Source of the DNA: Escherichia coli
GTDB taxonomy: Bacteria > Pseudomonadota > Gammaproteobacteria > Enterobacterales > Enterobacteriaceae
Length of the DNA: 64,000 nucleotides
Assembly (NCBI RefSeq): GCF_009931435.1
Contig: NZ_CP043414.1
Reading direction: 5' to 3' (one strand)
Part shown: positions 3,986-58,958 of the stretch, one piece after another
How positions within the stretch are numbered: the first letter of the stretch is position 1
Layout: every line of letters begins with the position of its first letter
Made by a program: the position numbers and the translations under genes
Notes under the pieces: generated by a model
Seen by the model: only the letters and a program-made list of their open reading frames with translations
Database searches by the model: none
What the model was told of the DNA's origin: nothing

Positions 3986-4152
3986 AGTAGGCATTACTTC
4001 TTTGTAGTGAAAAGGGCTTAGATAGTACCAAATGGGGCATGGTTACGTAAGTCCTGTGCAAGCATCTTATGATGCATTATTAGGTAAGTACTTAGCTGTT
4101 AACTTCAGGTAAACTAATAGCGATAAGTTATCTTTATAAATAAGGAGTCGGG

Positions 4153-5262
4153 ATGAACGAACAATCCCAGGCCAAATCACCAGAAGCCCTGCGCGCAATG
4201 GTCGCCGGGACACTGGCCAATTTTCAGCACCCAACCCTCAAGCATAACCTCACCACGCTGAAAGCGTTGCACCATGTCGCCTGGATGGACGACACGCTGC
4301 ATGTGGAACTGGTTATGCCGTTCGTATGGCATAGCGCGTTCGAAGAGTTAAAAGAGCAATGTAGCGCCGAACTGCTGCGCATTACCGGGGCGAAAGCTAT
4401 CGACTGGAAACTGTCGCACAATATCGCCACCTTAAAACGCGTGAAGAATCAGCCGGGAATTAACGGCGTGAAGAACATCATTGCGGTCAGCTCCGGTAAA
4501 GGCGGCGTGGGTAAATCCTCCACGGCGGTAAATCTGGCGCTGGCACTGGCGGCGGAAGGGGCGAAAGTCGGCATTCTGGACGCCGATATCTACGGCCCAT
4601 CAATACCCACCATGCTGGGCGCAGAAAATCAGCGTCCAACTTCGCCGGACGGTACCCATATGGCACCGATTATGTCTCATGGACTGGCAACCAATTCAAT
4701 TGGTTATCTGGTCACTGACGACAATGCGATGGTGTGGCGTGGTCCGATGGCGAGCAAGGCGTTAATGCAGATGTTGCAGGAAACCTTGTGGCCGGATCTC
4801 GACTATCTGGTGCTTGATATGCCGCCAGGCACCGGTGACATTCAATTGACACTGGCACAAAACATTCCAGTAACTGGCGCGGTAGTGGTCACCACCCCGC
4901 AGGACATTGCGTTGATCGATGCGAAAAAAGGCATTGTGATGTTCGAGAAAGTCGAGGTTCCGGTGCTCGGTATTGTCGAGAACATGAGTGTGCATATTTG
5001 CAGTAACTGTGGTCACCATGAACCGATTTTCGGTACCGGTGGTGCAGAGAAACTGGCCGAGAAATACCACACGCAGTTGCTGGGGCAGATGCCGTTACAC
5101 ATTTCCTTACGTGAAGATCTCGATAAAGGCACGCCAACAGTTATCAGCCGTCCGGAGAGCGAATTTACTGCTATCTACCGCCAGCTGGCTGACCGCGTTG
5201 CAGCCCAGCTTTATTGGCAGGGAGAAGTCATTCCTGGCGAGATTTCCTTCCGCGCGGTCTGA
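4153..5262 (+). CDS. mrp: Fe-S cluster carrier ATPase Mrp/ApbC
   Basis: 369-aa ORF with deviant Walker A (SSGKGGVGKSS) and CxxC (CSNCGHH); divergent from metG as in K-12. Confidence 0.95.
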   Translation: MNEQSQAKSPEALRAMVAGTLANFQHPTLKHNLTTLKALHHVAWMDDTLHVELVMPFVWHSAFEELKEQCSAELLRITGAKAIDWKLSHNIATLKRVKNQPGINGVKNIIAVSSGKGGVGKSSTAVNLALALAAEGAKVGILDADIYGPSIPTMLGAENQRPTSPDGTHMAPIMSHGLATNSIGYLVTDDNAMVWRGPMASKALMQMLQETLWPDLDYLVLDMPPGTGDIQLTLAQNIPVTGAVVVTTPQDIALIDAKKGIVMFEKVEVPVLGIVENMSVHICSNCGHHEPIFGTGGAEKLAEKYHTQLLGQMPLHISLREDLDKGTPTVISRPESEFTAIYRQLADRVAAQLYWQGEVIPGEISFRAV

Positions 5263-5290
5263 CGCGCATTAACCTTTTTGGTTGTTTTTT

Positions 5291-5335
5291 ATACACCGCA
5301 GAGATGTTACATTGATGCGGTGTATTTGTTTTTGC
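5291..5335 (+). terminator. Probable rho-independent terminator after mrp
   Basis: Hairpin acaccgca...tgcggtgt followed by atttgttttt. Confidence 0.5.
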
Positions 5336-5524
5336 CGCATTAATGAACACTTATTTAATGCTGCGAATATTCTGCGGACCTTCGTCCGAAACTCTATAAA
5401 GTCGATTGATCGTACAGGCAATGCATCATTATCATCCTTCGTGGCTGTGTAGTGGATGTACAGCTATAGTTTGTTATGCACTCATTCTATCCAGGCATAA
5501 CCTTTACTACAGGGATAACGTTCA

Positions 5525-5806
5525 ATGAATAAGTACTGGCTGTCAGGAATTATTTTTCTTGCCTATGGAATGGCTTCTCCCGCGTTCTCTTCACAGACTG
5601 CCACATTAACGATTAATGGCAGGATCAGTCCCCCAACATGCAGTATGGCTATGGTTAATGGTCAACCTCAACAGCATTGTGGTCAGTTAACGTATGATGT
5701 TGATACCCGTCATCAGGTTTCTTCGCCAGTCAAAGGTGTGACGACAGAAGTGGTTGTTGCAGGTAGCGATAGCAAACGTCGAATCGTGTTAAATCGCTAC
5801 GATTAA
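5525..5806 (+). CDS. yehE: Small secreted protein YehE
   Basis: 93-aa ORF with N-terminal signal peptide (MNKYWLSGIIFLAYGMASPAFS); position upstream of the yeh fimbrial genes. Confidence 0.75.
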   Translation: MNKYWLSGIIFLAYGMASPAFSSQTATLTINGRISPPTCSMAMVNGQPQQHCGQLTYDVDTRHQVSSPVKGVTTEVVVAGSDSKRRIVLNRYD

Positions 5807-6101
5807 TTTGCCACCCTGGTTTTTTAAGCGGATTTAGAAAGCTGAAATCATTCGTGTGAATGATTTCAGCTTTTTTATTGATATTAATAATACCATTTAA
5901 AAAAATCTGCATTAATTAATAGATGTGATAAATATTTAATATGCTTAAGTATTTGTTGTATTTATATTGCAATAGTTAATTTGTTTTAAATCAATAAAAC
6001 AATATGTTTACATTGCGGCAACTTTTTTGATGTGAGAAATTTGTTTCCAAGAGATACAGACTCTTAACAACCAAAAAATAAATTTTATTAAGGGACATAT
6101 T

Positions 6102-6644
6102 ATGAAACGTTCAATTATTGCTGCCGCTGTCTTTTCTTCTTTTTTTATGAGCGCTGGGGTATTTGCCGCAGACGTTGATACCGGAACATTAACCATTAAA
6201 GGGAATATTGCAGAATCTCCGTGTAAATTCGAAGCGGGTGGCGATTCAGTAAGTATTAATATGCCAACTGTACCAACCACTGTCTTTGAAGGTAAAGCTA
6301 AATACTCGACCTATGATGATGCAGTCGGTGTAACCAGCAGCATGTTAAAAATTAGCTGTCCGAAAGAAGTTGCTGGTGTAAAACTCTCGTTGATTACCAA
6401 CGATAAAATAACCGGAAACGATAAGGCGATAGCCAGTAGCAACGATACCGTGGGGTACTATCTCTATTTAGGTGATAACAGCGATGTCCTGGATGTTTCT
6501 GCACCTTTTAACATTGAAAGTTATAAAACAGCGGAAGGTCAATATGCTATTCCGTTTAAAGCAAAATACCTGAAGCTGACAGATAATTCAGTGCAATCAG
6601 GTGATGTGTTATCTTCTCTGGTTATGCGTGTGGCGCAGGATTAA
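6102..6644 (+). CDS. yehD: Fimbrial major subunit-like protein
   Basis: 180-aa ORF with signal peptide and conserved fimbrial Cys pair; first gene of a subunit-chaperone-usher-adhesin array. Confidence 0.85.
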   Translation: MKRSIIAAAVFSSFFMSAGVFAADVDTGTLTIKGNIAESPCKFEAGGDSVSINMPTVPTTVFEGKAKYSTYDDAVGVTSSMLKISCPKEVAGVKLSLITNDKITGNDKAIASSNDTVGYYLYLGDNSDVLDVSAPFNIESYKTAEGQYAIPFKAKYLKLTDNSVQSGDVLSSLVMRVAQD

Positions 6645-6724
6645 TAAATAAAATTTCAAATTTCTCCAGGTAATAAACATGGCCGCTATCCCCATGGCGG
6701 CCTTTTAATTTAAGAGGCATTAAG

Positions 6725-7399
6725 ATGAAAGGATTATTAGCTTTACTCATTTCTTCTATGGTCCTTCCTGCACATGCCGGTATTGTCATCTACGGGACGC
6801 GTATTATTTACCCGGCAGAAAACAAAGAAGTGACGGTGCAGTTGATGAATCAGGGAAACCGTTCTTCGCTGCTGCAGGCGTGGATTGATGATGGCGATAC
6901 GTCGTTACCACCAGAAAAAATTCAGGTTCCTTTCATGTTAACGCCACCAGTGGCAAAAATAGGGGCAAATTCCGGGCAGCAAGTAAAAATCAAAATTATG
7001 TCGAATAAACTGCCCACTAATAAAGAGAGCATTTTTTATCTGAATGTTCTGGATATTCCACCAAATAGTCCAGAGCAAGAGGGCAAGAATGCACTGAAAT
7101 TTGCAATGCAAAACAGAATCAAATTGTTTTACCGGCCTGCGGGTATTGCACCGGTAAATAAAGCGACATTTAAAAAGTTACTGGTAAATCGCAGTGGCAA
7201 TGGATTGGTGATAAAAAATGACTCAGCAAATTGGGTAACGATTTCGGATGTCAAAGCTAATAATGTCAAAGTCAATTATGAAACTATTATGATTGCCCCC
7301 TTAGAAAGTCAGAGTATTAATGTCAAAAGTAATAATGCGAATAACTGGTATCTGACCATTATCGATGACCATGGCAACTATATTAGTGACAAAATTTAA
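6725..7399 (+). CDS. yehC: Periplasmic fimbrial chaperone (PapD-like)
   Basis: 224-aa ORF with signal peptide; chaperone-like N-terminal region (IVIYGTRIIYPAENKEVTVQLMNQG). Confidence 0.85.
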   Translation: MKGLLALLISSMVLPAHAGIVIYGTRIIYPAENKEVTVQLMNQGNRSSLLQAWIDDGDTSLPPEKIQVPFMLTPPVAKIGANSGQQVKIKIMSNKLPTNKESIFYLNVLDIPPNSPEQEGKNALKFAMQNRIKLFYRPAGIAPVNKATFKKLLVNRSGNGLVIKNDSANWVTISDVKANNVKVNYETIMIAPLESQSINVKSNNANNWYLTIIDDHGNYISDKI

Positions 7400-7414
7400 T
7401 TGCAGGAGCTGCCT

Positions 7415-9895
7415 ATGTTGAGAATGACCCCACTTGCATCAGCAATCGTAGCGTTATTGCTCGGCATTGAAGCTTATGCAGCTGAAGAAACCTTTGATAC
7501 CCATTTTATGATAGGTGGAATGAAAGACCAGCAGGTTGCAAATATTCGTCTTGATGATAATCAACCCTTGCCGGGGCAGTATGACATCGATATTTATGTC
7601 AATAAGCAATGGCGCGGGAAATATGAGATTATTGTTAAAGACAACCCGCAAGAAACATGTTTATCAAGGGAAATTATCAAGCGGTTAGGCATTAATACCG
7701 ATAACTTTGCCAGCGGTAAGCAATGTTTAACATTTGAGCAACTTGTTCACGGTGGGAGATATACCTGGGATATCGGAGTTTTTCGTCTCGATTTCAGTGT
7801 ACCGCAGGCGTGGGTGGAGGAACTGGAAAGTGGCTATGTTCCACCGGAAAACTGGGAGCGGGGTATTAATGCGTTTTATACCTCTTATTATGTGAGTCAG
7901 TATTACAGCGACTATAAAGCGTCGGGTAATAGCAAGAGTACATATGTACGTTTTAACAGCGGGTTAAATTTACTGGGGTGGCAACTGCATTCTGATGCCA
8001 GTTTCAGTAAAACAAATAGCAATCCAGGGGTGTGGAAAAGCAATACCCTGTATCTGGAACGTGGATTTGCCCAACTTCTCGGCACGCTTCGCGTGGGTGA
8101 TATGTACACATCAAGCGATATTTTCGATTCTGTTCGCTTCAGCGGTGTGCGGTTGTTTCGTGATATGCAGATGTTGCCTAACTCGAAACAAAATTTTACT
8201 CCACGGGTGCAGGGGATTGCTCAGAGTAACGCGCTGGTAACGATTGAACAGAACGGTTTTGTGGTTTATCAGAAAGAGGTTCCTCCTGGCCCGTTTGCGA
8301 TTACAGATTTGCAGTTGGCCGGTGGTGGAGCAGATCTTGATGTCAGCGTGAAAGAGGCGGACGGTTCGGTAACCACCTATCTGGTGCCTTATGCAGCAGT
8401 GCCGAATATGCTGCAACCCGGCGTGTCGAAATATGATTTTGCGGCAGGTCGTAGCCATATTGAAGGGGCGAGCAAACAAAGTGATTTTGTTCAGGCGGGT
8501 TATCAGTATGGTTTTAATAACTTATTGACGCTGTATGGCGGATCGATGGTCGCGAATAATTATTACGCGTTCACTTTGGGCACAGGCTGGAATACACGCA
8601 TTGGTGCCATTTCCGTCGATGCCACGAAGTCGCATAGTAAACAAGACAACGGCGATGTGTTTGACGGGCAAAGTTATCAAATTGCCTACAACAAATTTGT
8701 GAGCCAAACGTCGACGCGTTTTGGTCTGGCGGCCTGGCGTTATTCGTCGCGTGATTACCGGACATTTAACGATCACGTTTGGGCAAACAATAAAGATAAT
8801 TATCGCCGTGATGAAAACGATATCTATGACATTGCCGATTATTACCAGAACGATTTTGGCCGTAAAAATAGCTTTTCTGCCAATATGAGCCAGTCATTGC
8901 CAGAAGGCTGGGGTTCTGTGTCCTTAAGTACGTTATGGCGAGATTACTGGGGGCGTAGCGGCAGCAGTAAGGATTATCAGTTGAGTTATTCCAACAACCT
9001 GCGACGGATAAGCTATACCCTCGCGGCAAGCCAGGCTTATGACGAGAATCATCATGAAGAGAAACGTTTTAATATTTTTATATCGATTCCCTTTGATTGG
9101 GGTGATGACGTTACGACGCCTCGTCGGCAAATATATATGTCTAACTCAACGACGTTTGATGATCAGGGTTTTGCCTCAAATAATACGGGATTATCGGGAA
9201 CCGTTGGAAGCCGGGATCAATTTAACTATGGGGTCAACCTGAGTCATCAGCATCAGGGAAATGAAACGACAGCTGGAGCGAATTTAACCTGGAACGCGCC
9301 GGTGGCAACGGTGAATGGCAGTTATAGTCAGTCGAGTACTTATCGACAGGCTGGAGCCAGTCTTTCAGGGGGCATTGTCGCCTGGTCGGGTGGCGTTAAT
9401 CTGGCGAACCGTCTTTCCGAAACGTTTGCTGTGATGAATGCGCCAGGAATTAAAGATGCTTATGTCAATGGGCAAAAATATCGCACAACAAACCGTAATG
9501 GAGTGGTGGTATACGACGGAATGACACCTTATCGGGAAAATCACCTGATGCTGGATGTGTCGCAAAGCGATAGCGAAGCAGAATTACGTGGCAACCGGAA
9601 CATTGCCGTCCCTTTTCGCGGCGCGGTTGTACTGGTTAATTTTGATACCGATCAGCGCAAGCCCTGGTTTATAAAAGCGTTAAGAGCGGATGGGCAACCA
9701 TTAACGTTTGGTTATGAAGTCAATGATATCCACGGTCACAATATTGGTGTTGTCGGTCAGGGAAGCCAGTTATTTATCCGCACTAATGATGTACCGCCAT
9801 CGGTTAATGTGGCAATTGATAAACAACAAGGGCTCTCATGCACAATCACCTTCGGTAAAGAGATTGATGAAAATAGGAATTATATTTGCCAGTAA
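7415..9895 (+). CDS. yehB: Outer-membrane fimbrial usher
   Basis: About 826 aa, usher-sized. Track ORF begins at a TTG at 7400; ATG at 7415 is preceded by aggag and gives MLRMTPLASA with a signal peptide. Confidence 0.9.
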   Translation: MLRMTPLASAIVALLLGIEAYAAEETFDTHFMIGGMKDQQVANIRLDDNQPLPGQYDIDIYVNKQWRGKYEIIVKDNPQETCLSREIIKRLGINTDNFASGKQCLTFEQLVHGGRYTWDIGVFRLDFSVPQAWVEELESGYVPPENWERGINAFYTSYYVSQYYSDYKASGNSKSTYVRFNSGLNLLGWQLHSDASFSKTNSNPGVWKSNTLYLERGFAQLLGTLRVGDMYTSSDIFDSVRFSGVRLFRDMQMLPNSKQNFTPRVQGIAQSNALVTIEQNGFVVYQKEVPPGPFAITDLQLAGGGADLDVSVKEADGSVTTYLVPYAAVPNMLQPGVSKYDFAAGRSHIEGASKQSDFVQAGYQYGFNNLLTLYGGSMVANNYYAFTLGTGWNTRIGAISVDATKSHSKQDNGDVFDGQSYQIAYNKFVSQTSTRFGLAAWRYSSRDYRTFNDHVWANNKDNYRRDENDIYDIADYYQNDFGRKNSFSANMSQSLPEGWGSVSLSTLWRDYWGRSGSSKDYQLSYSNNLRRISYTLAASQAYDENHHEEKRFNIFISIPFDWGDDVTTPRRQIYMSNSTTFDDQGFASNNTGLSGTVGSRDQFNYGVNLSHQHQGNETTAGANLTWNAPVATVNGSYSQSSTYRQAGASLSGGIVAWSGGVNLANRLSETFAVMNAPGIKDAYVNGQKYRTTNRNGVVVYDGMTPYRENHLMLDVSQSDSEAELRGNRNIAVPFRGAVVLVNFDTDQRKPWFIKALRADGQPLTFGYEVNDIHGHNIGVVGQGSQLFIRTNDVPPSVNVAIDKQQGLSCTITFGKEIDENRNYICQ

Positions 9896-9910
9896 TAATC
9901 GGGTGGCTCT

Positions 9911-10945
9911 ATGAAAATTCGCATAATGTTATTTATATTAATTATGATGGTAATGCCTGTGAGTTATGCAGCATGTTATGGAGAGTTATCTGCTCAGCAT
10001 AATTTGGCTGTTCAGGGGGATTTTGCACTGACTCAAACACAAACGGCGACATATGAGCATAATTTCAACGATTCATCATGTGTGAGTACAAATACCATCA
10101 TTCCCATGAATTCATCGGATATTATTGTTGGGCTGTATAACGATACTATTAAATTAAATTTACATTTTGAATGGATCAATAAAAACAACATCACGTTGTC
10201 AAATAATCAGACCAGTTTCACCAGTGGTTATTCGATAACGGTAACACCTGCGGCTAGTAATGCAAAAGTAAATGTTTCTGCGGGGGGCAGCGGTTCAGTG
10301 ATGATTAATGGTGTTGCGACATTATCCAGTGCTTCATCATCGACACGCGGGAGTGCTGCAGTACAATTTTTACTGTGTTTATTCGGTGGCAAGTCATGGG
10401 ATGCATGTGTAAATAGCTACAGAAATGCATTGGCACAAAATGCAGGTGTCTATTCCTTTAATCTGACATTGTCATACAACCCGATAACCACAACCTGCAA
10501 ACCGGACGATTTATTAATTACTTTAGAGAGTATTCCCATTTCACAATTACCAGCTACAGGTAACAAAGCAACAATAAATAGTAACAAAGGGGATATTGTT
10601 CTGCGTTGTAAAAACTTATTAGGTCAACAAAATCAAACATCACGGAAAATGCAGGTGTATTTATCAAGTTCTGATTTGTTAACCAACAGCAACACAATAC
10701 TGAAAGGTGCGGAAGATAATGGCGTAGGATTTATTCTTGAAAGTAATGGTTCTCCAGTCACACTTTTAAATATCACTAACAGCAGTAAAGAATACACAAA
10801 TTTAAAAGAAATTGCGGCAAAGTCAAAACTTACAGATACAACGGTTTCAATTCCGGTAACTGCCAGTTACTACGTCTACGATACAAATAAAGTTAAATCT
10901 GGCGCTCTGGAGGCTACCGCCTTAATCAACGTGAAATATGATTAA
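9911..10945 (+). CDS. yehA: Fimbrial adhesin-like tip protein
   Basis: 344-aa ORF with signal peptide, last gene of the yehDCBA array. Confidence 0.8.
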   Translation: MKIRIMLFILIMMVMPVSYAACYGELSAQHNLAVQGDFALTQTQTATYEHNFNDSSCVSTNTIIPMNSSDIIVGLYNDTIKLNLHFEWINKNNITLSNNQTSFTSGYSITVTPAASNAKVNVSAGGSGSVMINGVATLSSASSSTRGSAAVQFLLCLFGGKSWDACVNSYRNALAQNAGVYSFNLTLSYNPITTTCKPDDLLITLESIPISQLPATGNKATINSNKGDIVLRCKNLLGQQNQTSRKMQVYLSSSDLLTNSNTILKGAEDNGVGFILESNGSPVTLLNITNSSKEYTNLKEIAAKSKLTDTTVSIPVTASYYVYDTNKVKSGALEATALINVKYD

Positions 10946-10999
10946 TAACAAGTAAGACGAGCAAGTGGCTAATAATAAAAAATAACAAGGTGTCTGCAT

Positions 11000-11029
11000 T
11001 TCCCCCTCATGATGAGGGGGCTTTTTTTA
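11000..11029 (+). terminator. Probable rho-independent terminator after yehA
   Basis: Hairpin tccccctcat/gatgaggggg followed by a run of seven T. Confidence 0.55.
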
Positions 11030-11365
11030 GCGATGATAAAAAATCTCACCGTCGTAGGCTTTAATGATTTTACCGTCGGCATCGTTGATCAACACGTATG
11101 CGCCACCCATATAGGTCCAGTGCGTTCCGGCATCAGGAGCGGGCAGGTTACGTAACTGCCACTGCTTAATGTTGTACTCATCGGTGCGGTACATCTCTGG
11201 GACGGTATCGCCTGGTTTGAAATGCTTAAAGTCAGCAATGAAACTGCTTAACTCATACTTAGAAATTCCCGAGGTATTGGTCGAACCCGCGGTGGCTGGT
11301 GCGGCCCAGGCGGCACTGGTAACCAGCAATAGCGCACCCAGCAACATCTTATTTTTAATGGTCAT
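11027..11365 (-). CDS. rcnB: Periplasmic Ni/Co homeostasis protein RcnB
   Basis: Track ORF is 172 aa; internal ATG giving MTIKNKMLLGALLLVTSAAWA (signal peptide, 112 aa) matches my memory of RcnB; downstream of rcnA on the same strand. Confidence 0.85.
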   Translation of the reverse strand: MTIKNKMLLGALLLVTSAAWAAPATAGSTNTSGISKYELSSFIADFKHFKPGDTVPEMYRTDEYNIKQWQLRNLPAPDAGTHWTYMGGAYVLINDADGKIIKAYDGEIFYHR

Positions 11366-11569
11366 ATACTCTCCACTTTGGGGATCTGTAATATCAGTCG
11401 CATATCTTTCCTGCCATACAATATAACTGACAAGCGATATTTTGTTAGTGATCCCATGATTTCGTAAAAAGTGTAAATGAAAGGATGCCCTAAAAGCATC
11501 CTTAGCGAGCAGAGAGCCAGCGGAAATAGCTGATTTAAGAATCATCCTGGGCTGAAGATAACATGCAGC

Positions 11570-12391
11570 CTATCGCATAATGCCCATAAAGCCATGCACG
11601 CCCATATACACCCCAACTAAGCCAATCAACAGACTGGAAAAATAGGGCGCACGTTTAGCGAGAGTGTTAAATCCGCTCCAGCGTTTTGCGACCTGCTGAA
11701 CGCTGATTGCTGCGCCAACGCCTACGGTGACCAGCGTTAACGCCAGGCCAATGCTGAAACTGACGACCAGTGTTGCGCCCAGTGTCAGGGCTTTCAACTG
11801 AATACAAATCAACAGCACGGTAATTGCTGCCGGGCAGGGGATCAGTCCACCTGTTAACCCAAACAATAAAATTTGCCAGTTGGTCACTTCTCTGCCATTG
11901 AAGCGTCGTTTGATGTCATTGGCATGGGCTCGTGCATGAGCATCCTGATACTCCCCATGTTCGTGATGGTGATGATGTCCATGGTCGTGGTGATCTTCGT
12001 GATCGTGATGATACTCATGATCATGCCCGTGCATATTCTCCAGCCAGTTGCGTTCGCCGCGCCAGGTACGCCAGAACATCCAGAACGCGGTGCCAATAAT
12101 GATCACCGCGGAAATCAACTGGAGCCACGGTTCTGCAGATTGAGCAGTAAAACGTTTGCTGATCACCATCCCGCCAAAGGCAATCAACCAGACCACCGCG
12201 GTATGCGAAAGGGTTGCTGCCAGTCCGAGCATCACCGCCTGTTTAATGGTGCCTTTGATGGCGATGATAAACGCCGCCATCATCGTTTTTGAGTGCCCTG
12301 GTTCCAGGCCATGAAGCGCACCAAGTAAGATGGCGCTGGGAATGAAGAACCAGGCGTTTCCTTGCTGAAGAAGAGTGGTAAATTCGGTCAT
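11570..12391 (-). CDS. rcnA: Nickel/cobalt efflux permease RcnA
   Basis: 273-aa membrane protein with a His-rich loop (HGHDHEYHHDHEDHHDHGHHHHHEHGE). Confidence 0.9.
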   Translation of the reverse strand: MTEFTTLLQQGNAWFFIPSAILLGALHGLEPGHSKTMMAAFIIAIKGTIKQAVMLGLAATLSHTAVVWLIAFGGMVISKRFTAQSAEPWLQLISAVIIIGTAFWMFWRTWRGERNWLENMHGHDHEYHHDHEDHHDHGHHHHHEHGEYQDAHARAHANDIKRRFNGREVTNWQILLFGLTGGLIPCPAAITVLLICIQLKALTLGATLVVSFSIGLALTLVTVGVGAAISVQQVAKRWSGFNTLAKRAPYFSSLLIGLVGVYMGVHGFMGIMR

Positions 12392-12428
12392 GATAATAAT
12401 TCTTAGTATTAATTCGGCAATCCGATTC

Positions 12429-12463
12429 TACTCCCCCCCAGTACCTGATACTACCCCCCAGTA
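12429..12463. promoter_or_regulatory. Two tandem RcnR operator-like sites in the rcnA/rcnR divergent promoter region
   Basis: tactcccccccagta and tactaccccccagta seen directly, 5 nt apart; they fit the TACT-G-tract-AGTA operator form I recall for RcnR. Confidence 0.8.
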
Positions 12464-12511
12464 GAATAATAGTGCTATGATTTTTCATGTTCTTGTTAAC
12501 CAGGTGTTGCC

Positions 12512-12784
12512 ATGTCTCATACAATCCGTGATAAACAGAAACTGAAAGCGCGTGCCAGTAAGATTCAGGGTCAGGTCGTGGCGCTCAAGAAAATGCTCGA
12601 CGAGCCGCACGAATGCGCAGCTGTTCTACAACAGATTGCTGCTATCCGTGGCGCGGTAAACGGTCTGATGCGGGAAGTGATTAAAGGTCATCTGACGGAA
12701 CACATCGTTCACCAGGGGGATGAGCTAAAACGTGAAGAAGATCTGGATGTCGTTCTGAAGGTGCTGGATTCATATATCAAATAA
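12512..12784 (+). CDS. rcnR: Ni/Co-responsive repressor RcnR (CsoR/RcnR family)
   Basis: 90-aa [41 protein letters not shown]; divergent from rcnA. Confidence 0.9.
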
Positions 12785-12874
12785 TTTCACAACGTTATTG
12801 TAATCCCGCCGTTTTTCCTCGTTTACAACGTGTGCGCGGGACATTACCATCCATCTCTGCGATTCATCATCGCA

Positions 12875-12990
12875 ACCAAACGACTCGGGGTGCCCTTCTG
12901 CGTGAAGGCTGAGAAATACCCGTATCACCTGATCTGGATAATGCCAGCGTAGGGAAGTCACAGACCACCAGGTCATTGCTTCTTCACGTT
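12875..12990 (+). promoter_or_regulatory. TPP riboswitch (thi box) in the thiM leader
   Basis: ggggtgcccttctgcgtgaaggctgagaaatacccgtatcacctgatctggataatgccagcgtagggaa immediately upstream of thiM; conserved THI-element core (ctgaga, cctgatctggataatgccagcg). Boundaries approximate. Confidence 0.9.
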
Positions 12991-13006
12991 ATGGCAGGAG
13001 CAAACT

Positions 13007-13795
13007 ATGCAAGTCGACCTGCTGAGTTCCGCGCAATCAGCGCACGCGTTAAACCTCTTTTACCAACACTCTCCTCTTGTGCATTGCATGACCAATGATG
13101 TGGTGCAAACCTTTACTGCCAATACTTTACTGGTGCTCGGTGCATCGCCAGCGATGGTTATCGAAGCAGAAGAGGCCAGTCAATTTGCGGCTATCGCCAG
13201 TGCCTTGCTAATTAACGTCGGCACGCTGACGCAGCCACGCGCACAGGCAATGCGTGCTGCCGTTGAACAGGCAACACACTCCCAAACGCCCTGGACGCTT
13301 GATCCGGTCGCGGTTGGCGCACTCGATTATCGTCGCCGTTTTTGTCATGAACTTTTATCTTTTAAACCGACAGCGATACGTGGTAATGCTTCGGAAATCA
13401 TGGCATTAGCTGGCGTTGCTAATGGTGGACGGGGAGTGGACACCACTGACGCCGCGGCTAACGCGATACCTGCTGCACAAACACTGGCACGGGAAACTGG
13501 CGCAATCGTCGTGGTCACTGGCGAGGTGGATTATATTACCGATGGTCGTCGCACCGTTGGCATTCACGGCGGCAATTCGTTAATGACCAAAGTGGTAGGA
13601 ACTGGCTGTGCATTATCGGCAGTTGTCGCTGCCTGTTGTGCATTACCAGGCGATATGCTGGAAAATATCGCATCTGCCTGTCACTGGATGAAACAAGCCG
13701 GAGAACGCGCCGTCGCCAGAAGTGAAGGGCCTGGCAGTTTTGTTCCCCATTTTCTTGATGCGCTCTGGCAATTGACGCAGGAGGTGCAGGCATGA
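13007..13795 (+). CDS. thiM: Hydroxyethylthiazole kinase
   Basis: 262-aa ORF directly downstream of the thi box; 4-nt overlap with thiD. Confidence 0.95.
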
Positions 13796-14592
13796 AACGG
13801 ATTAACGCTCTGACAATTGCAGGCACTGATCCCAGTGGTGGCGCAGGAATTCAGGCAGATCTCAAAACGTTCTCTGCACTTGGTGCTTATGGTTGTTCAG
13901 TAATAACCGCCCTGGTAGCGCAAAACACCCGAGGCGTGCAATCGGTGTATCGCATAGATCCTGATTTTGTCGCCGCGCAGTTGGATTCGGTGTTCACTGA
14001 TGTGCGAATCGACACCACTAAAATCGGTATGTTGGCGGAAACCGATATTGTTGAAGCGGTGGCAGAACGGTTGCAACGTTATCAGATCCAAAACGTGGTA
14101 CTCGACACCGTTATGCTGGCAAAAAGCGGCGACCCTCTGCTTTCACCTTCGGCGGTTGCCACGCTGCGCAGTCGATTATTGCCACAGGTTTCATTAATAA
14201 CGCCAAACTTGCCCGAAGCTGCCGCCTTGCTCGACGCGCCACACGCGCGCAACGAACAGGAAATGCTGGAACAAGGGCGATCGCTGTTGGCGATGGGCTG
14301 TGGCGCAGTGCTAATGAAAGGTGGTCATCTGGATGATGAGCAAAGCCCGGACTGGCTGTTTACTCGCGAGGGGGAACAACGGTTTACTGCACCGCGCATT
14401 ATGACCAAAAACACCCACGGCACTGGTTGTACGCTCTCTGCGGCGTTGGCTGCACTGCGCCCGCGCCATACAAACTGGGCTGACACCGTCCAGGAGGCAA
14501 AAAGCTGGCTTTCATCGGCGTTAGCCCAGGCCGACACGCTGGAAGTTGGTCACGGTATTGGTCCGGTTCACCACTTCCACGCCTGGTGGTGA
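13792..14592 (+). CDS. thiD: Hydroxymethylpyrimidine/phosphomethylpyrimidine kinase
   Basis: 266-aa [30 protein letters not shown] (ribokinase-like HMP-P kinase). Confidence 0.95.
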
Positions 14593-14656
14593 GCACCTTA
14601 CTATAGCTGCTTTGGTTATTGTCAGTATTTAGCGCTGACATTCAGGGATGAAACCA

Positions 14657-15475
14657 ATGCAGCTGAGAATCACCAGTCGAAAAAAATTCACCGCTTTATT
14701 ATGCGCTCTTGGGCTAATTTCCATCGTTGCAATTTATCCGCGTCAGACGGTGAATTTTTTCTATTCGACAGCAATTCAGATTAAAGACTACATCCACTTC
14801 TACGGTTATCGTCCGGTTAAATCTTTCGCTATTCGCATTCCTGCCAGTTACACCATTCACGGAATAGATGTTTCGCGCTGGCAGGAGCGGATCGACTGGC
14901 AGCGGGTGGCAAAAATGCGCGATAACGGTATTCGCTTGCAATTTGCCTTTATCAAGGCGACGGAAGGCGAAAAACTGGTGGACCCGTATTTTTCGCGTAA
15001 CTGGCAACTAAGCCGCGAAAATGGCCTGTTGCGTGGGGCGTATCATTATTTTTCCCCGTCGGTATCCGCCTCAGTTCAGGCGCGATTATTTCTGCAAACG
15101 GTGGATTTTGCCCACGGTGATCTCCCTGCTGTGCTGGACGTAGAAGAGCGCGGAAAATTATCGGCGAAGGAATTACGCAAGCAGGTAAGTCAGTGGCTAA
15201 AAATGGTCGAAAAAAGCACAGGAAAAAAGCCGATTATTTATGCAGGCGCGACGTTTTATCACACGAATCTGGCGGGGTATTTCAATGAATATCCGTGGTG
15301 GGTGGCTCACTATTATCAACGTCGTCCGGACAATGACGGCATGGCCTGGCGCTTCTGGCAGCATTCCGACCGTGGACAGGTAGATGGCATTAATGGTCTG
15401 GTGGATTTTAATGTGTTTAATGGCACGGTGGAGGAGCTGCAGGGATTCGTTGATGGGATTAAAGAAACGCCTTAA
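14657..15475 (+). CDS. yegX: Glycoside hydrolase family 25 (lysozyme-like) protein
   Basis: Track ORF starts 14648; ATG at 14657 has better Shine-Dalgarno spacing and gives 272 aa. GH25-like motifs (GIDVSRWQ, FAFIKATEG). Confidence 0.8.
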   Translation: MQLRITSRKKFTALLCALGLISIVAIYPRQTVNFFYSTAIQIKDYIHFYGYRPVKSFAIRIPASYTIHGIDVSRWQERIDWQRVAKMRDNGIRLQFAFIKATEGEKLVDPYFSRNWQLSRENGLLRGAYHYFSPSVSASVQARLFLQTVDFAHGDLPAVLDVEERGKLSAKELRKQVSQWLKMVEKSTGKKPIIYAGATFYHTNLAGYFNEYPWWVAHYYQRRPDNDGMAWRFWQHSDRGQVDGINGLVDFNVFNGTVEELQGFVDGIKETP

Positions 15476-15526
15476 ATAAGAAGCAGTGATATACTCCCAC
15501 CAGACTCCCTGGCAGGAAAAAGACAA

Positions 15527-16273
15527 ATGGAACAAGCGCATACCCAGCTGATTGCCCAACTGAACGAACGTATTTTAGCGGCGGATAACACGCCGCTTTA
15601 TATTAAGTTTGCCGAAACGGTGAAAAATGCCGTGCGCAGCGGGGTGCTGGAACATGGCAATATTTTACCCGGCGAGCGCGATTTAAGTCAGTTAACCGGC
15701 GTTTCGCGCATTACGGTGCGCAAGGCGATGCAGGCGCTGGAAGAAGAGGGCGTGGTGACACGTTCGCGCGGCTACGGCACGCAGATTAATAACATCTTTG
15801 AATACTCGTTAAAAGAAGCGCGAGGATTTTCTCAGCAGGTGGTGTTGCGCGGGAAAAAGCCCGATACGCTATGGGTTAACAAGCGAGTGGTTAAATGCCC
15901 TGAAGAGGTGGCGCAGCAATTGGCGGTCGAAGCGGGTAGTGATGTCTTTTTGCTTAAGCGTATTCGCTATGTTGATGAAGAAGCGGTCTCTATTGAGGAG
16001 TCGTGGGTTCCGGCGCATTTAATTCATGATGTTGATGCCATCGGAATCTCTCTTTATGACTACTTCCGCAGTCAGCATATTTTTCCAAAGCGTACCCGTT
16101 CCCGCGTTAGCGCCCGGATGCCGGATGCCGAGTTTCAGTCACATATTCAATTAGATAGTAAAATACCGGTGCTGGTGATCAAGCAAGTGGCGCTTGACCA
16201 ACAGCAACGGCCTATTGAGTACAGCATCAGCCACTGTCGCAGTGATCTATACGTTTTTGTGTGTGAGGAGTAG
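15527..16273 (+). CDS. yegW: GntR-family transcriptional regulator
   Basis: 248-aa ORF with N-terminal GntR-type helix-turn-helix (LPGERDLSQLTGVSRITVRKAMQAL) and UTRA-like C-terminus. Confidence 0.85.
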   Translation: MEQAHTQLIAQLNERILAADNTPLYIKFAETVKNAVRSGVLEHGNILPGERDLSQLTGVSRITVRKAMQALEEEGVVTRSRGYGTQINNIFEYSLKEARGFSQQVVLRGKKPDTLWVNKRVVKCPEEVAQQLAVEAGSDVFLLKRIRYVDEEAVSIEESWVPAHLIHDVDAIGISLYDYFRSQHIFPKRTRSRVSARMPDAEFQSHIQLDSKIPVLVIKQVALDQQQRPIEYSISHCRSDLYVFVCEE

Positions 16274-17212
16274 TTCCTCGCGGGTTGGCGCGCAATCACC
16301 GCCGCGATGCCCGACAACCCACGACGCCACTGCATTGCCCAGCAATACGGCATCCGCCAGTGGCAAACCAGAGGCCAGTCCAGCTAATACGCCACCTGCA
16401 TGACTGTCGCCCGCCCCAATGGTGTCTACAACTTGCGTTGGAAATGCCGGGATGCAGCCAGAAGCGTTATTGCTGAAATACCATGCGCCTTCTTTATCGA
16501 GACGAACGATCAACGGCGCGGCAAATTTCTCCTGCCATTGCTTGCCAAGTGTTGTTATCTCTGCTGATAAAGCAAAACGTTCGGCGGCAATCTCACCCTC
16601 CTGACGATTGAGTGACACTAAAGGTCGACAGGCCATGATTCGCGCCAGTAATGCATCCGGGATATCGCCAATACGTGGGCCAAAATCGATGAACGGCGTC
16701 ACGTCTTGCAGACTCTCCAGCCATTCCACTAACAATTCACCGCAGGGCGAGGCCAGTTGATAACCAGAAAAATAGAGCAGGCTGCCAGGCGCAACGGTTA
16801 ATCGCGCCAACCATTCGCGATTCCACTGATTTTCCACACCACTGAACGACATAAACGTGCGTTCACCATCAGGCTCAACCAGCGCCAGACACCAGCCGTT
16901 ATCGCCTTCGGCGTTATCGATGAGGCTGATTAATCCTTCTTTCGCCATCCGGTTACGAATAATTTCCGCCCACACACCCTGGCCGAGCGGCAGGGCATTA
17001 CCCGCTTCGATACCGAGGCGCTTTAACGCCACGGCAATATTCAGTGCGCAGCCGCCAACGTTAACGCTCTGCTGTTTCAGTTCGATATCGCACCCACGCC
17101 AGGGGAGGGCATAAGCGTCGGCGATCACATCAATGACTGCCGCGCCGACGACCATCACCGGCTGACGCGTGGTTAATTCAGGCAGCAGCGTGTGTAATCG
17201 AGCGCCGCTCAT
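16247..17212 (-). CDS. yegV: PfkB-family sugar/nucleoside kinase
   Basis: 321-aa ORF with ribokinase-family signatures (GGCALNIAVALKRLG; DTIGAGDSHAGG). 3' end overlaps the convergent yegW by 27 nt. Confidence 0.85.
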   Translation of the reverse strand: MSGARLHTLLPELTTRQPVMVVGAAVIDVIADAYALPWRGCDIELKQQSVNVGGCALNIAVALKRLGIEAGNALPLGQGVWAEIIRNRMAKEGLISLIDNAEGDNGWCLALVEPDGERTFMSFSGVENQWNREWLARLTVAPGSLLYFSGYQLASPCGELLVEWLESLQDVTPFIDFGPRIGDIPDALLARIMACRPLVSLNRQEGEIAAERFALSAEITTLGKQWQEKFAAPLIVRLDKEGAWYFSNNASGCIPAFPTQVVDTIGAGDSHAGGVLAGLASGLPLADAVLLGNAVASWVVGHRGGDCAPTREELLLTHKNV

Positions 17213-18213
17213 GCCGCCTCCCGTTGTTGGCGATACTTTGCCAGCGCCGTGGCATAATGATTAAAATCAAGCTGATTTACCGCATCCAGCTCCGTCTTAA
17301 ACGCAGGATCGATAGCGTTAACGCCATGCAATGCGCCGCAAATCGCCGTCGCCATAGCGCCGATGGTGTCTGTGTCGCCGCCAAGGTTAGCGCACAGGAT
17401 GGCGCAACGGTTCGGGTCGGTTTGTGCCAGTTCAACCAGCGCAATGGCGCACGGAACGGACTCAATAGTACTGGTACCTGCCCCAACCACCTGATACAGC
17501 TGTTCGCTGGCGGATTCGGTGCCGTCGGCATTGCGCACAATTTTCAGCGCAATCTCCAGACGTGCTGCCAGTGAGGCGCTGAAGGTAGTGATGCGTTTTT
17601 GCTGTGCATGTCGCGCAATCGAGGGTAGAGAATCAACAATCGCTGACCAGCTTTCTCCGTCAATGGCACGGGAAATCGCCCATGCGATGACTACCGCACC
17701 TGCCACCGCCAGATCGGATTTATGGGTCGGGCTGGACGCCAGCGCCACATCATCAATAAAGGAATCAACATTGCGCGCCGGAAGCAAACAACCTAATGGC
17801 GAGACGCGCATCGCTGCGCCGTTGGTCACGCCATTGTTTTCCAGTTCAGCAACGGGTTTACCGTCGCGAATGGCGTTAAGCGCAATCTTCGAGGTCGGAC
17901 CTAGTACGTTTTTGTTAAAGGCGTCGAAACGCAGCGCCCAGTCGAGAATATTACGCCCAATCAGATCCGGATCGATCTTGCCTTCACGTTCCAGTAACGC
18001 ATCCGCCAGACACAGCGCCATCGAGGTATCGTCGGTGAATTCGGCGCGGTTAAAATAACAGGCCGCGTTATTCTCCTTTGGTCCAGGAAGAAAACGGTCA
18101 ATCCAGCCAAAGTGTGCTTTAACGCGGCTGCGTGGCCAAAGCTCGGAGGGCATCCCCATCGCATCCCCTAACGCCTGCCCATAAAGAGCACCGAGAATAC
18201 GTTCTGTTTTCAT
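17209..18213 (-). CDS. yegU: ADP-ribosylglycohydrolase-family protein
   Basis: 334-aa ORF MKTERILGALYGQALGDAMGMPSE; 4-nt overlaps with yegT upstream and yegV downstream. Confidence 0.85.
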   Translation of the reverse strand: MKTERILGALYGQALGDAMGMPSELWPRSRVKAHFGWIDRFLPGPKENNAACYFNRAEFTDDTSMALCLADALLEREGKIDPDLIGRNILDWALRFDAFNKNVLGPTSKIALNAIRDGKPVAELENNGVTNGAAMRVSPLGCLLPARNVDSFIDDVALASSPTHKSDLAVAGAVVIAWAISRAIDGESWSAIVDSLPSIARHAQQKRITTFSASLAARLEIALKIVRNADGTESASEQLYQVVGAGTSTIESVPCAIALVELAQTDPNRCAILCANLGGDTDTIGAMATAICGALHGVNAIDPAFKTELDAVNQLDFNHYATALAKYRQQREAA

Positions 18214-19487
18214 TTAACTTCCCCTTGTGTCAACGCAATATCGCGATCATCGACCTTGATAGCCGTAATTTCGTTGTCGGATTCGCGGAAAAAAATCATG
18301 AACAGCACGGCGATAATGGCAATCATCACCGCGCCGAAAGTCCACATCCCGGACCAGTTGAAAGTCAGTCCGTTTACCGGTTCCGGATAAGCGAACATCT
18401 TTTCCATCATCACACCGCCAAGACGATAGCCGAGCAAACTGCCGAATCCCTGGCAGCAGAGCGTGATCAGCCCCTGCGCAGCGGTACGCATATGCACGGG
18501 GGCTTTTTTATCGACATAGATGTAAGCGGTAACGTAGTAAAAATCGTAACTTACGCCATGCAGCAAAATGCCGAGGAACAGTAACGCGTAGGTGAAATAT
18601 TCATCCGCACTACCGTAAATAAAGAAGCCATAGCGGATCGCTGCGGTGACCAGACCAAGTAATAATACCTTTTTGATACCAAAGCGTTTAGTGAAAAACG
18701 GTAATGCCAGCATAAAGAATATTTCAGAGAACTGGCCGAGCGTCATCCAGCCGGTGGCATTTTTCATGCCGACTTCGGTCAGATAACCGTTGGCAAAGAT
18801 GTAATAGAACGCCAGTGGCATCGCAAACAGGAATGAACAGAAGAAAAAGACGAGGAAGTTTTTATCGCGCAGCAGGATCAGCGCATCCAGGCCGAGCATG
18901 ACTTTAATATCCATTTTGCCGGTGCTTTTTGGTGGCGTGTCGGGCAGGAAAAACGCAAACACACCGAGCAGAGCAGAACTTCCGGCGGTAATCAGCAGCG
19001 GGATGTTAGTCGGTGAGATATCGGCATACCCCAGTATTTGCGGCAAGAAACCACATGCCAGACCGGAGGCAATCCAGCCGATAGTGCCCATCACACGAAT
19101 GCGCGGGAAATCACGCTCAACATCCGGCACGTTGGCAAAAGCGATGCTGTTAGTCAGCGCAATGGTCGGCATATAGGTTAGCGAGTAGGCCAGCAGTAAC
19201 GGGAAGAACCCGGCAAAAGTGGTCTGTTGCGCAGCGAAATACATCAGCAGCGCGCCTGCGAACATCAATACCGCCAGCACTTTCTGCGCCGAGAAAAAGC
19301 GGTCAGTGATGGAGCCAACCAGAATTGGCGACAGGATCGCCGCAATGGCGGTACAGGCATACGACCAGCCAATTTCTCCGGCACTAAAACCGCTTTTACT
19401 TAACCACAACCACAATGGCACAAACCACGCGCCCCAGATAAACCATTCAACAAACATCATGAACGACAGCTTTGCTGTTGTTTTCAT
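18210..19487 (-). CDS. yegT: MFS nucleoside transporter-like protein
   Basis: 425-aa polytopic membrane protein; first gene of the yegT-yegU-yegV array. Confidence 0.85.
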   Translation of the reverse strand: MKTTAKLSFMMFVEWFIWGAWFVPLWLWLSKSGFSAGEIGWSYACTAIAAILSPILVGSITDRFFSAQKVLAVLMFAGALLMYFAAQQTTFAGFFPLLLAYSLTYMPTIALTNSIAFANVPDVERDFPRIRVMGTIGWIASGLACGFLPQILGYADISPTNIPLLITAGSSALLGVFAFFLPDTPPKSTGKMDIKVMLGLDALILLRDKNFLVFFFCSFLFAMPLAFYYIFANGYLTEVGMKNATGWMTLGQFSEIFFMLALPFFTKRFGIKKVLLLGLVTAAIRYGFFIYGSADEYFTYALLFLGILLHGVSYDFYYVTAYIYVDKKAPVHMRTAAQGLITLCCQGFGSLLGYRLGGVMMEKMFAYPEPVNGLTFNWSGMWTFGAVMIAIIAVLFMIFFRESDNEITAIKVDDRDIALTQGEVK

Positions 19488-19743
19488 CTTTTAATTCCTT
19501 CATGACAGGTAATGTAAGGTACACGATGACAATACCACTTAATAATACCTTTTAAATACCTTTGCGGTGAAAACTTGACCGCGCTAACATTTTTTCTGAT
19601 GAATCGAGCCAACAGAAAACGCTGAAAAAACATCCAAAAGATGGAAAAACTCGCCCGTAACGACCAGGATTATGATTGCCCGCAAAAGGCGGGCCAGGAC
19701 AATCCATAGCCGATATCCAATCGGAATTTACGGGAGCATAGTA

Positions 19744-20796
19744 ATGACAGATATTGCGCAGTTGCTTGGCAAAGACGCCGACAACCTTTTACAGCACCGT
19801 TGTATGACAATTCCTTCTGACCAGCTTTATCTCCCCGGACATGACTACGTAGACCGCGTAATGATTGACAATAATCGCCCGCCAGCGGTGTTACGTAATA
19901 TGCAGACGTTGTACAACACCGGGCGTCTGGCTGGCACAGGATATCTTTCTATTCTGCCGGTTGACCAGGGCGTTGAGCACTCTGCCGGAGCTTCATTTGC
20001 CGCTAACCCGCTCTACTTTGACCCGAAAAACATTGTTGAACTGGCGATCGAAGCGGGCTGTAACTGTGTGGCGTCAACCTACGGCGTGCTGGCATCGGTA
20101 TCGCGGCGTTACGCGCATCGCATTCCATTCCTTGTCAAACTTAATCACAACGAGACGCTAAGTTACCCGAACACTTACGATCAAACGCTGTATGCCAGCG
20201 TGGAGCAGGCGTTCAACATGGGCGCGGTGGCGGTTGGCGCGACCATCTATTTTGGCTCGGAAGAGTCACGTCGCCAGATTGAAGAAATTTCTGCGGCTTT
20301 TGAACGTGCGCACGAGCTGGGCATGGTGACCGTGCTGTGGGCCTATTTGCGTAACTCCGCCTTTAAGAAAGATGGCGTCGATTATCACGTTTCGGCTGAC
20401 CTGACCGGCCAGGCTAACCATCTGGCGGCAACCATAGGCGCAGATATCGTCAAACAAAAAATGGCGGAAAATAACGGCGGCTATAAAGCGATTAATTACG
20501 GTTATACCGACGATCGCGTGTACAGCAAGTTGACCAGCGAAAACCCGATTGATCTGGTGCGTTATCAGTTAGCTAACTGCTATATGGGTCGGGCTGGGTT
20601 GATAAACTCCGGCGGTGCTGCGGGCGGTGAAACTGACCTCAGCGATGCAGTGCGTACTGCGGTTATCAACAAACGCGCTGGCGGAATGGGGCTGATTCTT
20701 GGACGTAAGGCGTTCAAGAAATCGATGGCTGACGGCGTGAAACTGATTAATGCCGTGCAGGACGTTTATCTCGATAGCAAAATTACTATTGCCTGA
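19744..20796 (+). CDS. fbaB: Fructose-bisphosphate aldolase class I
   Basis: Track ORF 19672 has a 24-codon extension; ATG at 19744 gives [20 protein letters not shown] (350 aa). Confidence 0.95.
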
Positions 20797-20823
20797 TACG
20801 CCTCATACGAACAGCACCACCCC

Positions 20824-20937
20824 GTAGGACGGATAAGGCGTTTACACTGCATCCGGCAACCTATGCCTGATGCGACGCGGAAGCGTCTTATCATGCCTAC
20901 ATAGCACTGCCACGTATGTTTACACCGCATCCGGCAT
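20824..20937. repeat. REP/BIME cluster (about three REP units)
   Basis: Imperfect palindromic units of the gccggatgcggcgtaaacgccttatccggcctac type in alternating orientation. Confidence 0.7.
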
Positions 20938-20956
20938 AAAAACACGCGCACTTTGC

Positions 20957-20990
20957 TACGGCTTCCCTATCGGGAGGCCGTTTTTTTTTG
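20957..20990 (+). terminator. Probable rho-independent terminator of fbaB
   Basis: Hairpin cggcttccc...gggaggccg followed by a run of nine T. Confidence 0.6.
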
Positions 20991-21051
20991 CCTTTTACTC
21001 CTCGAACAATTTTCACATTGTCGTTTTTGTGATCGTTATCTCGACATTTAA

Positions 21052-21976
<925 letters not shown>

Positions 21977-21977
21977 T

Positions 21978-23251
<1,274 letters not shown>

Positions 23252-23260
23252 GGACGGTAT

Positions 23261-23713
23261 ATGACTAACCTGTTTGTTCGTAGCGGAATTTCTTTTGTCG
23301 ATCGTAGCGAAGTTTTAACCCATATCGGTAATGAGATGCTCGCCAAAGGTGTGGTTCATGATACCTGGCCACAGGCATTAATTGCCAGAGAAGCAGAATT
23401 CCCTACCGGGATAATGCTTGAGCAGCACGCCATTGCAATACCGCATTGTGAGGCGATTCATGCTAAGTCGTCAGCCATTTATCTGTTAAGGCCAACAAAT
23501 AAAGTTCATTTTCAGCAAGCGGATGATGATAACGACGTGGAGGTATCGTTGGTTATTGCGTTGATTGTGGAAAATCCGCAGCAGCAATTGAAACTTTTAC
23601 GCTGTTTATTTGGCAAGTTACAACAGCCCGATATCGTCGAGACACTAATCACTCTTCCTGAAACCCAGTTAAAGGAATACTTCACAAAGTATGTTTTAGA
23701 TTCAGACGAATAA
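23261..23713 (+). CDS. gatA: Galactitol PTS enzyme IIA
   Basis: 150-aa ORF, position in gat operon. Confidence 0.9.
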   Translation: MTNLFVRSGISFVDRSEVLTHIGNEMLAKGVVHDTWPQALIAREAEFPTGIMLEQHAIAIPHCEAIHAKSSAIYLLRPTNKVHFQQADDDNDVEVSLVIALIVENPQQQLKLLRCLFGKLQQPDIVETLITLPETQLKEYFTKYVLDSDE

Positions 23714-23743
23714 ATCCCTCTGTAACAATAAAAAGGACTATTT

Positions 23744-24028
23744 ATGAAACGCAAGATTATTGTCGCTTGCGGAGGCGCGGTTGCGACCTCTACGATGGCG
23801 GCGGAAGAAATTAAAGAGTTGTGTCAGAATCATAATATTCCTGTTGAATTAATCCAGTGTCGGGTTAATGAAATAGAAACCTATATGGATGGTGTGCATT
23901 TGATATGCACCATTGCCAAAGTGGATCGTAGTTTTGGCGATATTCCGTTAGTTCACGGCATGCCTTTTATTTCTGGTGTCGGTATCGAAGCATTACAAAA
24001 TAAAATTCTGACTATCTTACAGGGGTGA
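23744..24028 (+). CDS. gatB: Galactitol PTS enzyme IIB
   Basis: 94-aa ORF with N-terminal Cys motif ([12 protein letters not shown]). Confidence 0.9.
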
Positions 24029-29217: not shown

Positions 29218-29304
29218 AAAAAATAAGCCCGTGTAAGGGAGATTACACAGGCTAAGGAGGTGGTTCCTGGTACAGCTAGCATTTTATGGGTTATGTTTTT
29301 CAGC
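29218..29304 (-). ncRNA. cyaR: CyaR (RyeE) Hfq-dependent small RNA
   Basis: Minus-strand sequence GCUGAAAAACAUAACCCAUAAAAUGCUAGCUGUACCAGGAACCACCUCCUUAGCCUGUGUAAUCUCCCUUACACGGGCUUAUUUUUU matches the CyaR sequence as I recall it, including the terminator hairpin and U-tail. Confidence 0.85.
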
Positions 29305-29388
29305 GAAACGGATGATAACCTTAATAAATGCAGCTGTATGTGATCGGTTTCTAAGAATTTTCCATCCGGGAAAAATAATCGAAATTAA

Positions 29389-31149: not shown

Positions 31150-31150
31150 A

Positions 31151-58946: not shown

Positions 58947-58958
58947 GGCGGTAGCGTG
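58947..58958 (+). promoter_or_regulatory. ops (operon polarity suppressor) element in the wza 5' leader
   Basis: ggcggtagcgtg seen directly, about 180 nt upstream of the wza ATG; matches the RfaH-recruiting ops consensus GGCGGTAGnnTG. Confidence 0.7.

Follow-up and report, generated by a model that had tools for sequence, protein, structure and literature searches.

A TPP riboswitch in the thiM leader of an Escherichia coli chromosome region: identity, modelled switching and conservation

What is the element that precedes thiM in this stretch of Escherichia coli DNA, how far does it reach, and by which route would it act on the genes behind it? The window (the whole stretch that was analysed, 64,000 nt in length) carries a recognisable thi-box at this locus, and our analyses indicate that the thiM leader element is almost certainly the known Escherichia thiM TPP riboswitch, an OFF switch working mainly on thiMD translation initiation. 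In E. coli K-12, the first description of this riboswitch is that of Winkler, Nahvi and Breaker 2002, and crystals of the aptamer were obtained by Serganov et al. 2006 as well as by Edwards and Ferre-D'Amare 2006 (all as listed in PMC2018614 and PMC1920254). The K-12 thiM expression domain has been probed (PMC1920254), and a Rho layer has been added to the picture (PMC5499598). All positions below are those of the window, and all parts of the leader and operon lie on the plus strand. To relate them to the two published numbering schemes, that of Rentmeister et al. (PMC1920254) was fixed through A84, A85, G86, U87 and G100-G101 as the window position minus 12871, and that of Bastet et al. (PMC5499598) was fixed through the CUGC primer and residue 151, which set the transcription start at 12857.

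Identity of the element and the parts of the leader

Scanned in full against Rfam 15 at its gathering thresholds, the 64-kb window yielded five matches, among them RF00059 (TPP riboswitch, THI element) at 12876-12972 (+), with 71.5 bits compared to a gathering score of 54.3 and an E-value of 4.2e-12 for the 64-kb window. The alignment spans model positions 1-105 of 105, and the match, which covers the aptamer and its flanks, is therefore full-length. A preliminary description made from the letters had already called a TPP riboswitch in the thiM leader from 12875 onward and had named the lack of any covariance-model hit as the outcome that would overturn the call; the match is well above threshold, and the 5' end had been placed within a base of it, the thi-box being recognisable by eye. 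Its core is legible as CUGAGA at 12909-12914 and as ACCUGAUCUGGAUAAUGCCAGCGUAGGGAAG at 12927-12957. The Rfam match ends 35 nt before the thiM start, and 47 nt separate the end of the aptamer from the start codon.

The aptamer proper (12882-12959), with helices taken from the cmscan alignment, is a three-way junction in which P1 (12882-12885/12956-12959) carries two arms, one made of P2 (12886-12891/12916-12922) and P3 (12892-12896/12905-12909), and the other of P4 (12928-12931/12950-12953) and P5 (12934-12937/12944-12947); all 21 of the assigned pairs are standard. The pyrimidine-sensing junction J3-2 is present as UGAGAA at 12910-12915, is invariant in our alignment of relatives (alignment A2, described below), and forms the pocket in which the pyrimidine ring of TPP is contacted by G40, G42 and A43 (PMC2018614), here 12911, 12913 and 12914. 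The pyrophosphate-sensing P4/P5 arm carries the thi-box ACCUGAUCUGGAUAAUGCCAGCG at 12927-12949, identical to that of K-12. Given the identity of the 80-nt aptamer to that of K-12 thiM, specific and high-affinity binding of TPP would be expected of the window aptamer as well.

Upstream of the aptamer, the transcription start of the leader is placed at 12857 by homology to K-12, where in vitro transcription of thiM was initiated with a CUGC primer and the ORF starts at residue 151 (Bastet et al., PMC5499598). The placement follows from the letters CTGC at 12857-12860, which correspond to the primer, and from the distance to the start codon (13007 - 12857 + 1 = 151), which equals the residue of the ORF start. 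A consensus scan (9 of 12 matches) points to a candidate sigma-70 promoter of thiMD with a -35 hexamer TTTACA at 12822-12827, a 17-nt spacer, and a -10 hexamer TACCAT at 12845-12850; both hexamers also occur in K-12, and the -10 ends 7 nt before the inferred start, so that the prediction draws its support from position only. The RNA would begin with a predicted 5'-terminal hairpin of 6 bp (UGCGAU/AUCGCA, 12858-12874), which is seen in all folds of the window's leader and of that of K-12.

Downstream of the aptamer lie the parts of the expression platform. A linker hairpin (GACC-ACCA-GGUC, 12963-12974), seen in the minimum free energy structure of the free RNA, is the apical part of the predicted ON-state anti-sequestering hairpin, and nuclease cleavages in K-12 agree with its loop at A96-A99 (PMC1920254). 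The anti-Shine-Dalgarno (anti-SD) strand UGCUUCUUCA at 12977-12986, with the core CUUC at 12979-12982, was assigned by folding and complementarity. The thiM Shine-Dalgarno (SD) sequence GGAG at 12997-13000 is invariant in the 46 leaders of our alignment and is numbered nt 126-129 in the probing work on K-12 (PMC1920254). In K-12, the platform includes the first ~23 nt of the thiM ORF, residues 151-172 (Bastet et al., PMC5499598), and on the basis of that work and of our enforced folds, the start codon and the first ~8 codons of the window's thiM (13007-13031) are assigned to the OFF-state expression platform.

The location is that of a 5' leader of a thiamine gene, as both genes behind it are confirmed by NCBIfam equivalog models. 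The first, thiM (13007-13795), encodes a hydroxyethylthiazole kinase of 262 aa (TIGR00694, 328.2 bits, cut-off 256.4), and the second, thiD (13792-14592), an HMP/HMP-P kinase of 266 aa (TIGR00097, 361.5 bits, cut-off 204.95). The two genes share the letters ATGA at 13792-13795, and the 4-nt overlap that had been proposed for them is thus correct. A GGAGG at 13780-13784 lies 7 nt ahead of the thiD ATG.

Modelled folds and the proposed switch

We folded the leader from the transcription start to nt 185, either free or with the 21 aptamer pairs enforced to mimic bound TPP, in an energy model that leaves out ligand binding, tertiary contacts and co-transcriptional kinetics. In the free fold, nt 86-140 from the start form one long anti-sequestering hairpin in which the 3' half of the aptamer (12942-12960) is paired with 12977-12996, and the four SD bases G141, G142, A143 and G144 have probabilities of being unpaired of 0.74, 0.72, 0.69 and 0.17. 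With the aptamer enforced, the anti-SD strand pairs with 12992-13002 instead and all four SD bases are 0.00 unpaired, while 12961-12967 is paired with 13021-13031. The anti-SD strand therefore has two partners in the thermodynamic model, the 3' half of the aptamer or the SD, and the two pairings are mutually exclusive. The authentic K-12 leader folds like that of the window in both conditions, and the modelled free and aptamer-closed folds agree with the structures that chemical probing gave for K-12 thiM without and with TPP (PMC1920254). Compared to shuffled sequence, 12870-13030 has no lower minimum free energy (z = -0.36), as is common for an RNA with two alternative folds; this value does not bear on the aptamer.

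These folds bear on how the ribosome-binding site would be reached. The preliminary description had the aptamer positioned to sequester the thiM ribosome-binding site; ligand-dependent sequestration of that site holds up in the models, but the aptamer itself is not the strand that pairs with it, as the separate anti-SD core CUUC does so. In the modelled folds, what the aptamer sequesters is the anti-SD rather than the ribosome-binding site, and ligand binding would free the anti-SD to pair with the SD.

On this basis, we propose the following course of events. Transcription of the leader would begin at about 12857. At low TPP, the 3' half of the aptamer (12942-12960), with GAAG of the P1 3' strand among its bases, would pair with the anti-SD strand at 12977-12996, the SD GGAG at 12997-13000 would be left free, and thiM would be translated, with translation of thiD following via the ATGA overlap. 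With TPP bound, the aptamer (12882-12959) would close P1 and release the anti-SD CUUC, and the released CUUC would pair with the SD in the hairpin 12977-12986/12992-13002, blocking ribosome loading. By homology to K-12, the untranslated thiM RNA would then expose a C-rich Rho loading site around codons 17-20, and transcription would end within thiM codons 20-34, leaving less thiMD mRNA.

The Rho layer has been worked out in K-12, where a Rho loading site near nt 201-210 becomes accessible once translation is blocked, transcripts end at nt 231, 237 and 262, and thiMD mRNA drops with TPP in a manner that is Rho-dependent and secondary to the inhibition of translation (PMC5499598). Mapped from that study, the homologous region of the window covers 13057-13118, with loading at 13057-13066 and termination at 13087, 13093 and 13118. 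Its composition is 36% C and 4-8% G (25-nt windows from nt 191 and 201), equal to that of K-12 despite 6 substitutions. By analogy with the K-12 ortholog, Rho-dependent termination would be expected early in the window's thiM, at codons 20-34. More generally, the TPP binding, SD protection and Rho dependence shown in K-12 probably carry over to the window allele, judging from the sequence.

The other TPP riboswitches of E. coli, those of thiC and tbpA (thiB), share the aptamer family and a translational OFF mode with a Rho-dependent or mRNA-level component (PMC10450168, PMC11487190, PMC5499598), but they lie at other loci and have other expression platforms.

Conservation, rival readings and a rare allele in the linker

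The locus is orthologous to that of K-12 (rcnR-thiM-thiD-yegX), and the riboswitch element is far more conserved than its surroundings. Between the window and K-12, there are 0 differences over the 80 nt of the aptamer (12881-12960) and 2 over the 150 nt of the 5' untranslated region, a T-to-C change in the 5' hairpin loop (12865) and a G-to-A change in the linker (12962). The anti-SD, the SD, the spacing, the start codon, the modelled ON and OFF folds, and the 4-nt thiM/thiD overlap are likewise the same. In contrast, 12 of the 72 nt from the rcnR stop to the transcription start differ (16.7%), and thiM differs at 65 of 789 nt (8.2%, and 16.7% of third-codon positions), including the 6 substitutions in the Rho-equivalent region. 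At a rate of 16.7%, the binomial probability of finding two or fewer differences in 150 nt is 6e-10. We also observed that thiM (91.8% nucleotide identity to K-12, 19 of 262 aa different) is more divergent than its neighbours, with rcnR at 98.5% and 0 aa different, and thiD at 94.9% and 3 aa different.

To place the element among its relatives, the 30-mer 12928-12957 was used as a plain-DNA query against species-representative genomes and found at least 120 loci. Among the matches listed, 69 loci have a ThiM homologue directly downstream, and these gave 46 distinct leaders that were aligned on the start codon (alignment A2); the query itself fixed P4, P5 and the 3' strand of P1, and invariance at those positions is therefore partly built in. 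All aptamer stems can form in 46 of these 46 Enterobacterales leaders among the matches listed. In 45-46 of the 46, the anti-SD CUUC is complementary to GAAG in the 3' strand of P1, and in 45-46 of the 46 likewise to the SD GGAG, the rest being G-U variants. Thus, the thiM leaders of Citrobacter, Enterobacter, Cedecea, Kluyvera, Erwinia and others have the aptamer stems, the SD GGAG and the dual-pairing CUUC in common with the window, whereas the linker between P1 and the anti-SD varies in sequence and length by genus. Covariation in these 46 leaders gave essentially no signal, as the pairs are almost invariant and the measures stand barely above controls. The core of the two-partner switch is conserved across the order among the leaders listed, and the support for this is conserved complementarity rather than covariation.

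Folded without reference to the alignment, with the aptamer enforced or not, the 46 leaders listed gave mean SD accessibilities of 0.27 vs 0.21 in the two conditions, over many genera with different linkers. In this simple thermodynamic comparison, ON and OFF separate cleanly only in leaders of the Escherichia type, as in the window and in L087, L114 and L052, weakly in L008 (0.13 vs 0.0), and with no clear separation in many other genera. In columns 88-112 of the alignment, which hold the linker between P1 and the anti-SD, many of the non-Escherichia leaders have a different hairpin, and these linkers contain a complement of the bases that lie directly upstream of the SD and run into it (CCUGUCCGG with CCGGGCAGG in L014 being one case). 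With such differences among genera, the architecture of the expression platform is not uniform across the order, despite the invariant aptamer and anti-SD.

Could the leader act by another route, or be no riboswitch at all? Many Firmicute TPP riboswitches work through intrinsic transcription terminators, so that a terminator-type element is a known form of this family. In K-12, thiMD mRNA does drop with TPP (PMC5499598). However, we found 0 sites with a terminator-like hairpin and a U-run in 12500-13300, the expression platform holds an SD/anti-SD pair in place of a terminator, and the mRNA effect in K-12 is the Rho-dependent, secondary one described above; we reject an intrinsic-terminator mechanism for this leader, and consider it very improbable. 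The thought that the thi-box is a chance or decayed and functionless resemblance, or that the DNA instead encodes a 68-aa antisense ORF at 12770-12976, is just as improbable. The antisense frame is indeed open both in the window and in K-12. Outside the aptamer, however, its 12 nucleotide differences lead to 9 amino-acid changes, which is unlike a coding sequence, and we rejected the ORF as a gene on this substitution pattern. A chance thi-box match is ruled out by the covariance-model E-value of 4e-12 together with the conservation, as the aptamer is 100% conserved amid 8-17% divergence nearby. We therefore keep to a TPP riboswitch acting mainly on translation initiation.

Within that reading, the one feature out of the ordinary is the A at 12962 (nt 91 in the numbering of Rentmeister et al., nt 106 from the transcription start), a position at which K-12, like almost every E. 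coli, has G. Only 7 of 5,424 E. coli genomes match the 60-mer 12932-12991 exactly, and among the matches listed, A at this position is also found in one other Escherichia species-representative genome; the Escherichia-labelled leaders listed have G, A or C there. Through this A, the same riboswitch might be weakened in the helix that connects its linker to the first codons of thiM, so that in this lineage repression would be leakier or the TPP set-point higher. We regard this as unlikely, though it deserves more weight than the two readings above. The rarity of the allele speaks for it, as do the modelled folds, in which A costs the outer helix of the OFF state about 0.9-2.8 kcal/mol, according to the background, and the aptamer-closed and free ensembles lie 12.2 kcal/mol apart with A and 9.4 with G restored in the window, or 11.0 vs 10.05 kcal/mol in the reciprocal swap in K-12, all in the energy model that ignores ligand binding, tertiary contacts and co-transcriptional kinetics. 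On the other hand, position 12962 is unpaired in the ON model, the SD-sequestering hairpin is unaffected by the allele, with the SD 0% unpaired in the OFF model with either base, and the occurrence of G, A or C among Escherichia-labelled leaders suggests weak constraint. The G-to-A change is thus probably near-neutral. If the set-point reading were true, A at 12962 would represent natural variation in the set-point of a model riboswitch.

Genomic surroundings and meaning for annotation

The thiM TPP riboswitch at this locus is already known, ordinary, and already annotated in public genomes. The 226 nt of 12785-13010 match in 5,424 of 5,426 complete E. coli genomes. In K-12 MG1655, RefSeq also carries a 'TPP riboswitch', and the order yehA-rcnB-rcnA-rcnR-riboswitch-thiM-thiD-yegX is as in the window. 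In E. coli 2013C-4282, the leader is 100% identical and the RefSeq 'TPP riboswitch' lies exactly at the equivalent of 12876-12972. Despite this identical leader, we rejected the idea that the window is that strain, as it is only 93-97.6% identical elsewhere. Over 4000-24000 of the window, the best identity among the 5,426 complete E. coli genomes is 97.5%. This divergence may reflect an Escherichia lineage on the margin of the sampled E. coli or outside it, a cryptic clade, or a region beside the colanic-acid cluster that is unusually divergent.

Two O157 genomes differ at the riboswitch itself. In E. coli O157:H7 NE122 (L004, 840-3003), rcnR and the riboswitch are separated by an insert of ~2.2 kb that carries three small genes, and homology resumes only at window position 12873. 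The insert replaces the K-12-type promoter, the transcription start and the 5' hairpin (12822-12872), so that thiMD must use a different start there. In E. coli O157 Al Ain (L003, about 2990-3010, equivalent to window 12912), sequence from the side of phage terminase genes runs up to the riboswitch and meets it midway through J3-2, so that the aptamer lacks its 5' half (the 5' strands of P1 and P2, and P3) at this junction, and RefSeq has no riboswitch at the site; a second partial match lies elsewhere in that genome.

Other features of the window are listed here as observations on the region. Two 98-aa ORFs at 30853-31447 (-) are a ParE toxin (PF05016, E 3.5e-13) and a ParD antitoxin (PF03693, E 7e-19), located between yegQ and yegP; 2013C-4282 has a HEAT-repeat gene at that place, which marks it as a variable spot. 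Two SIB RNA antitoxin genes (RF00113) at 43425-43567 and 43754-43902 (-), with 141.6 and 149.1 bits, represent two Sib/Ibs type I toxin-antitoxin repeats, and three annotated Ibs toxin genes at the equivalent site in 2013C-4282 imply that the Sib/Ibs copy number varies. The CyaR small RNA (RF00112) at 29221-29306 (-), 100.7 bits, adjoins yegQ, and a JUMPstart element (RF01707) at 58920-58958 (+), 57.3 bits, lies upstream of the colanic-acid genes wza-wzb-wzc; both are ordinary for this chromosome region.

The thiM TPP riboswitch is among the best-characterised, with crystal structures, folding kinetics and a Rho-coupled mechanism to its name, and finding it here has little significance beyond correct annotation. 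For this purpose, its extent is what matters. The interval 12875-12990 of the preliminary description does take in the aptamer and the anti-SD, but it stops short of the SD at 12997-13000 and of the AUG at 13007. The functional unit reaches past that end, running from about 12857, the inferred transcription start, to about 13031, and annotators may take the regulatory unit as these limits plus the Rho region to about 13118.
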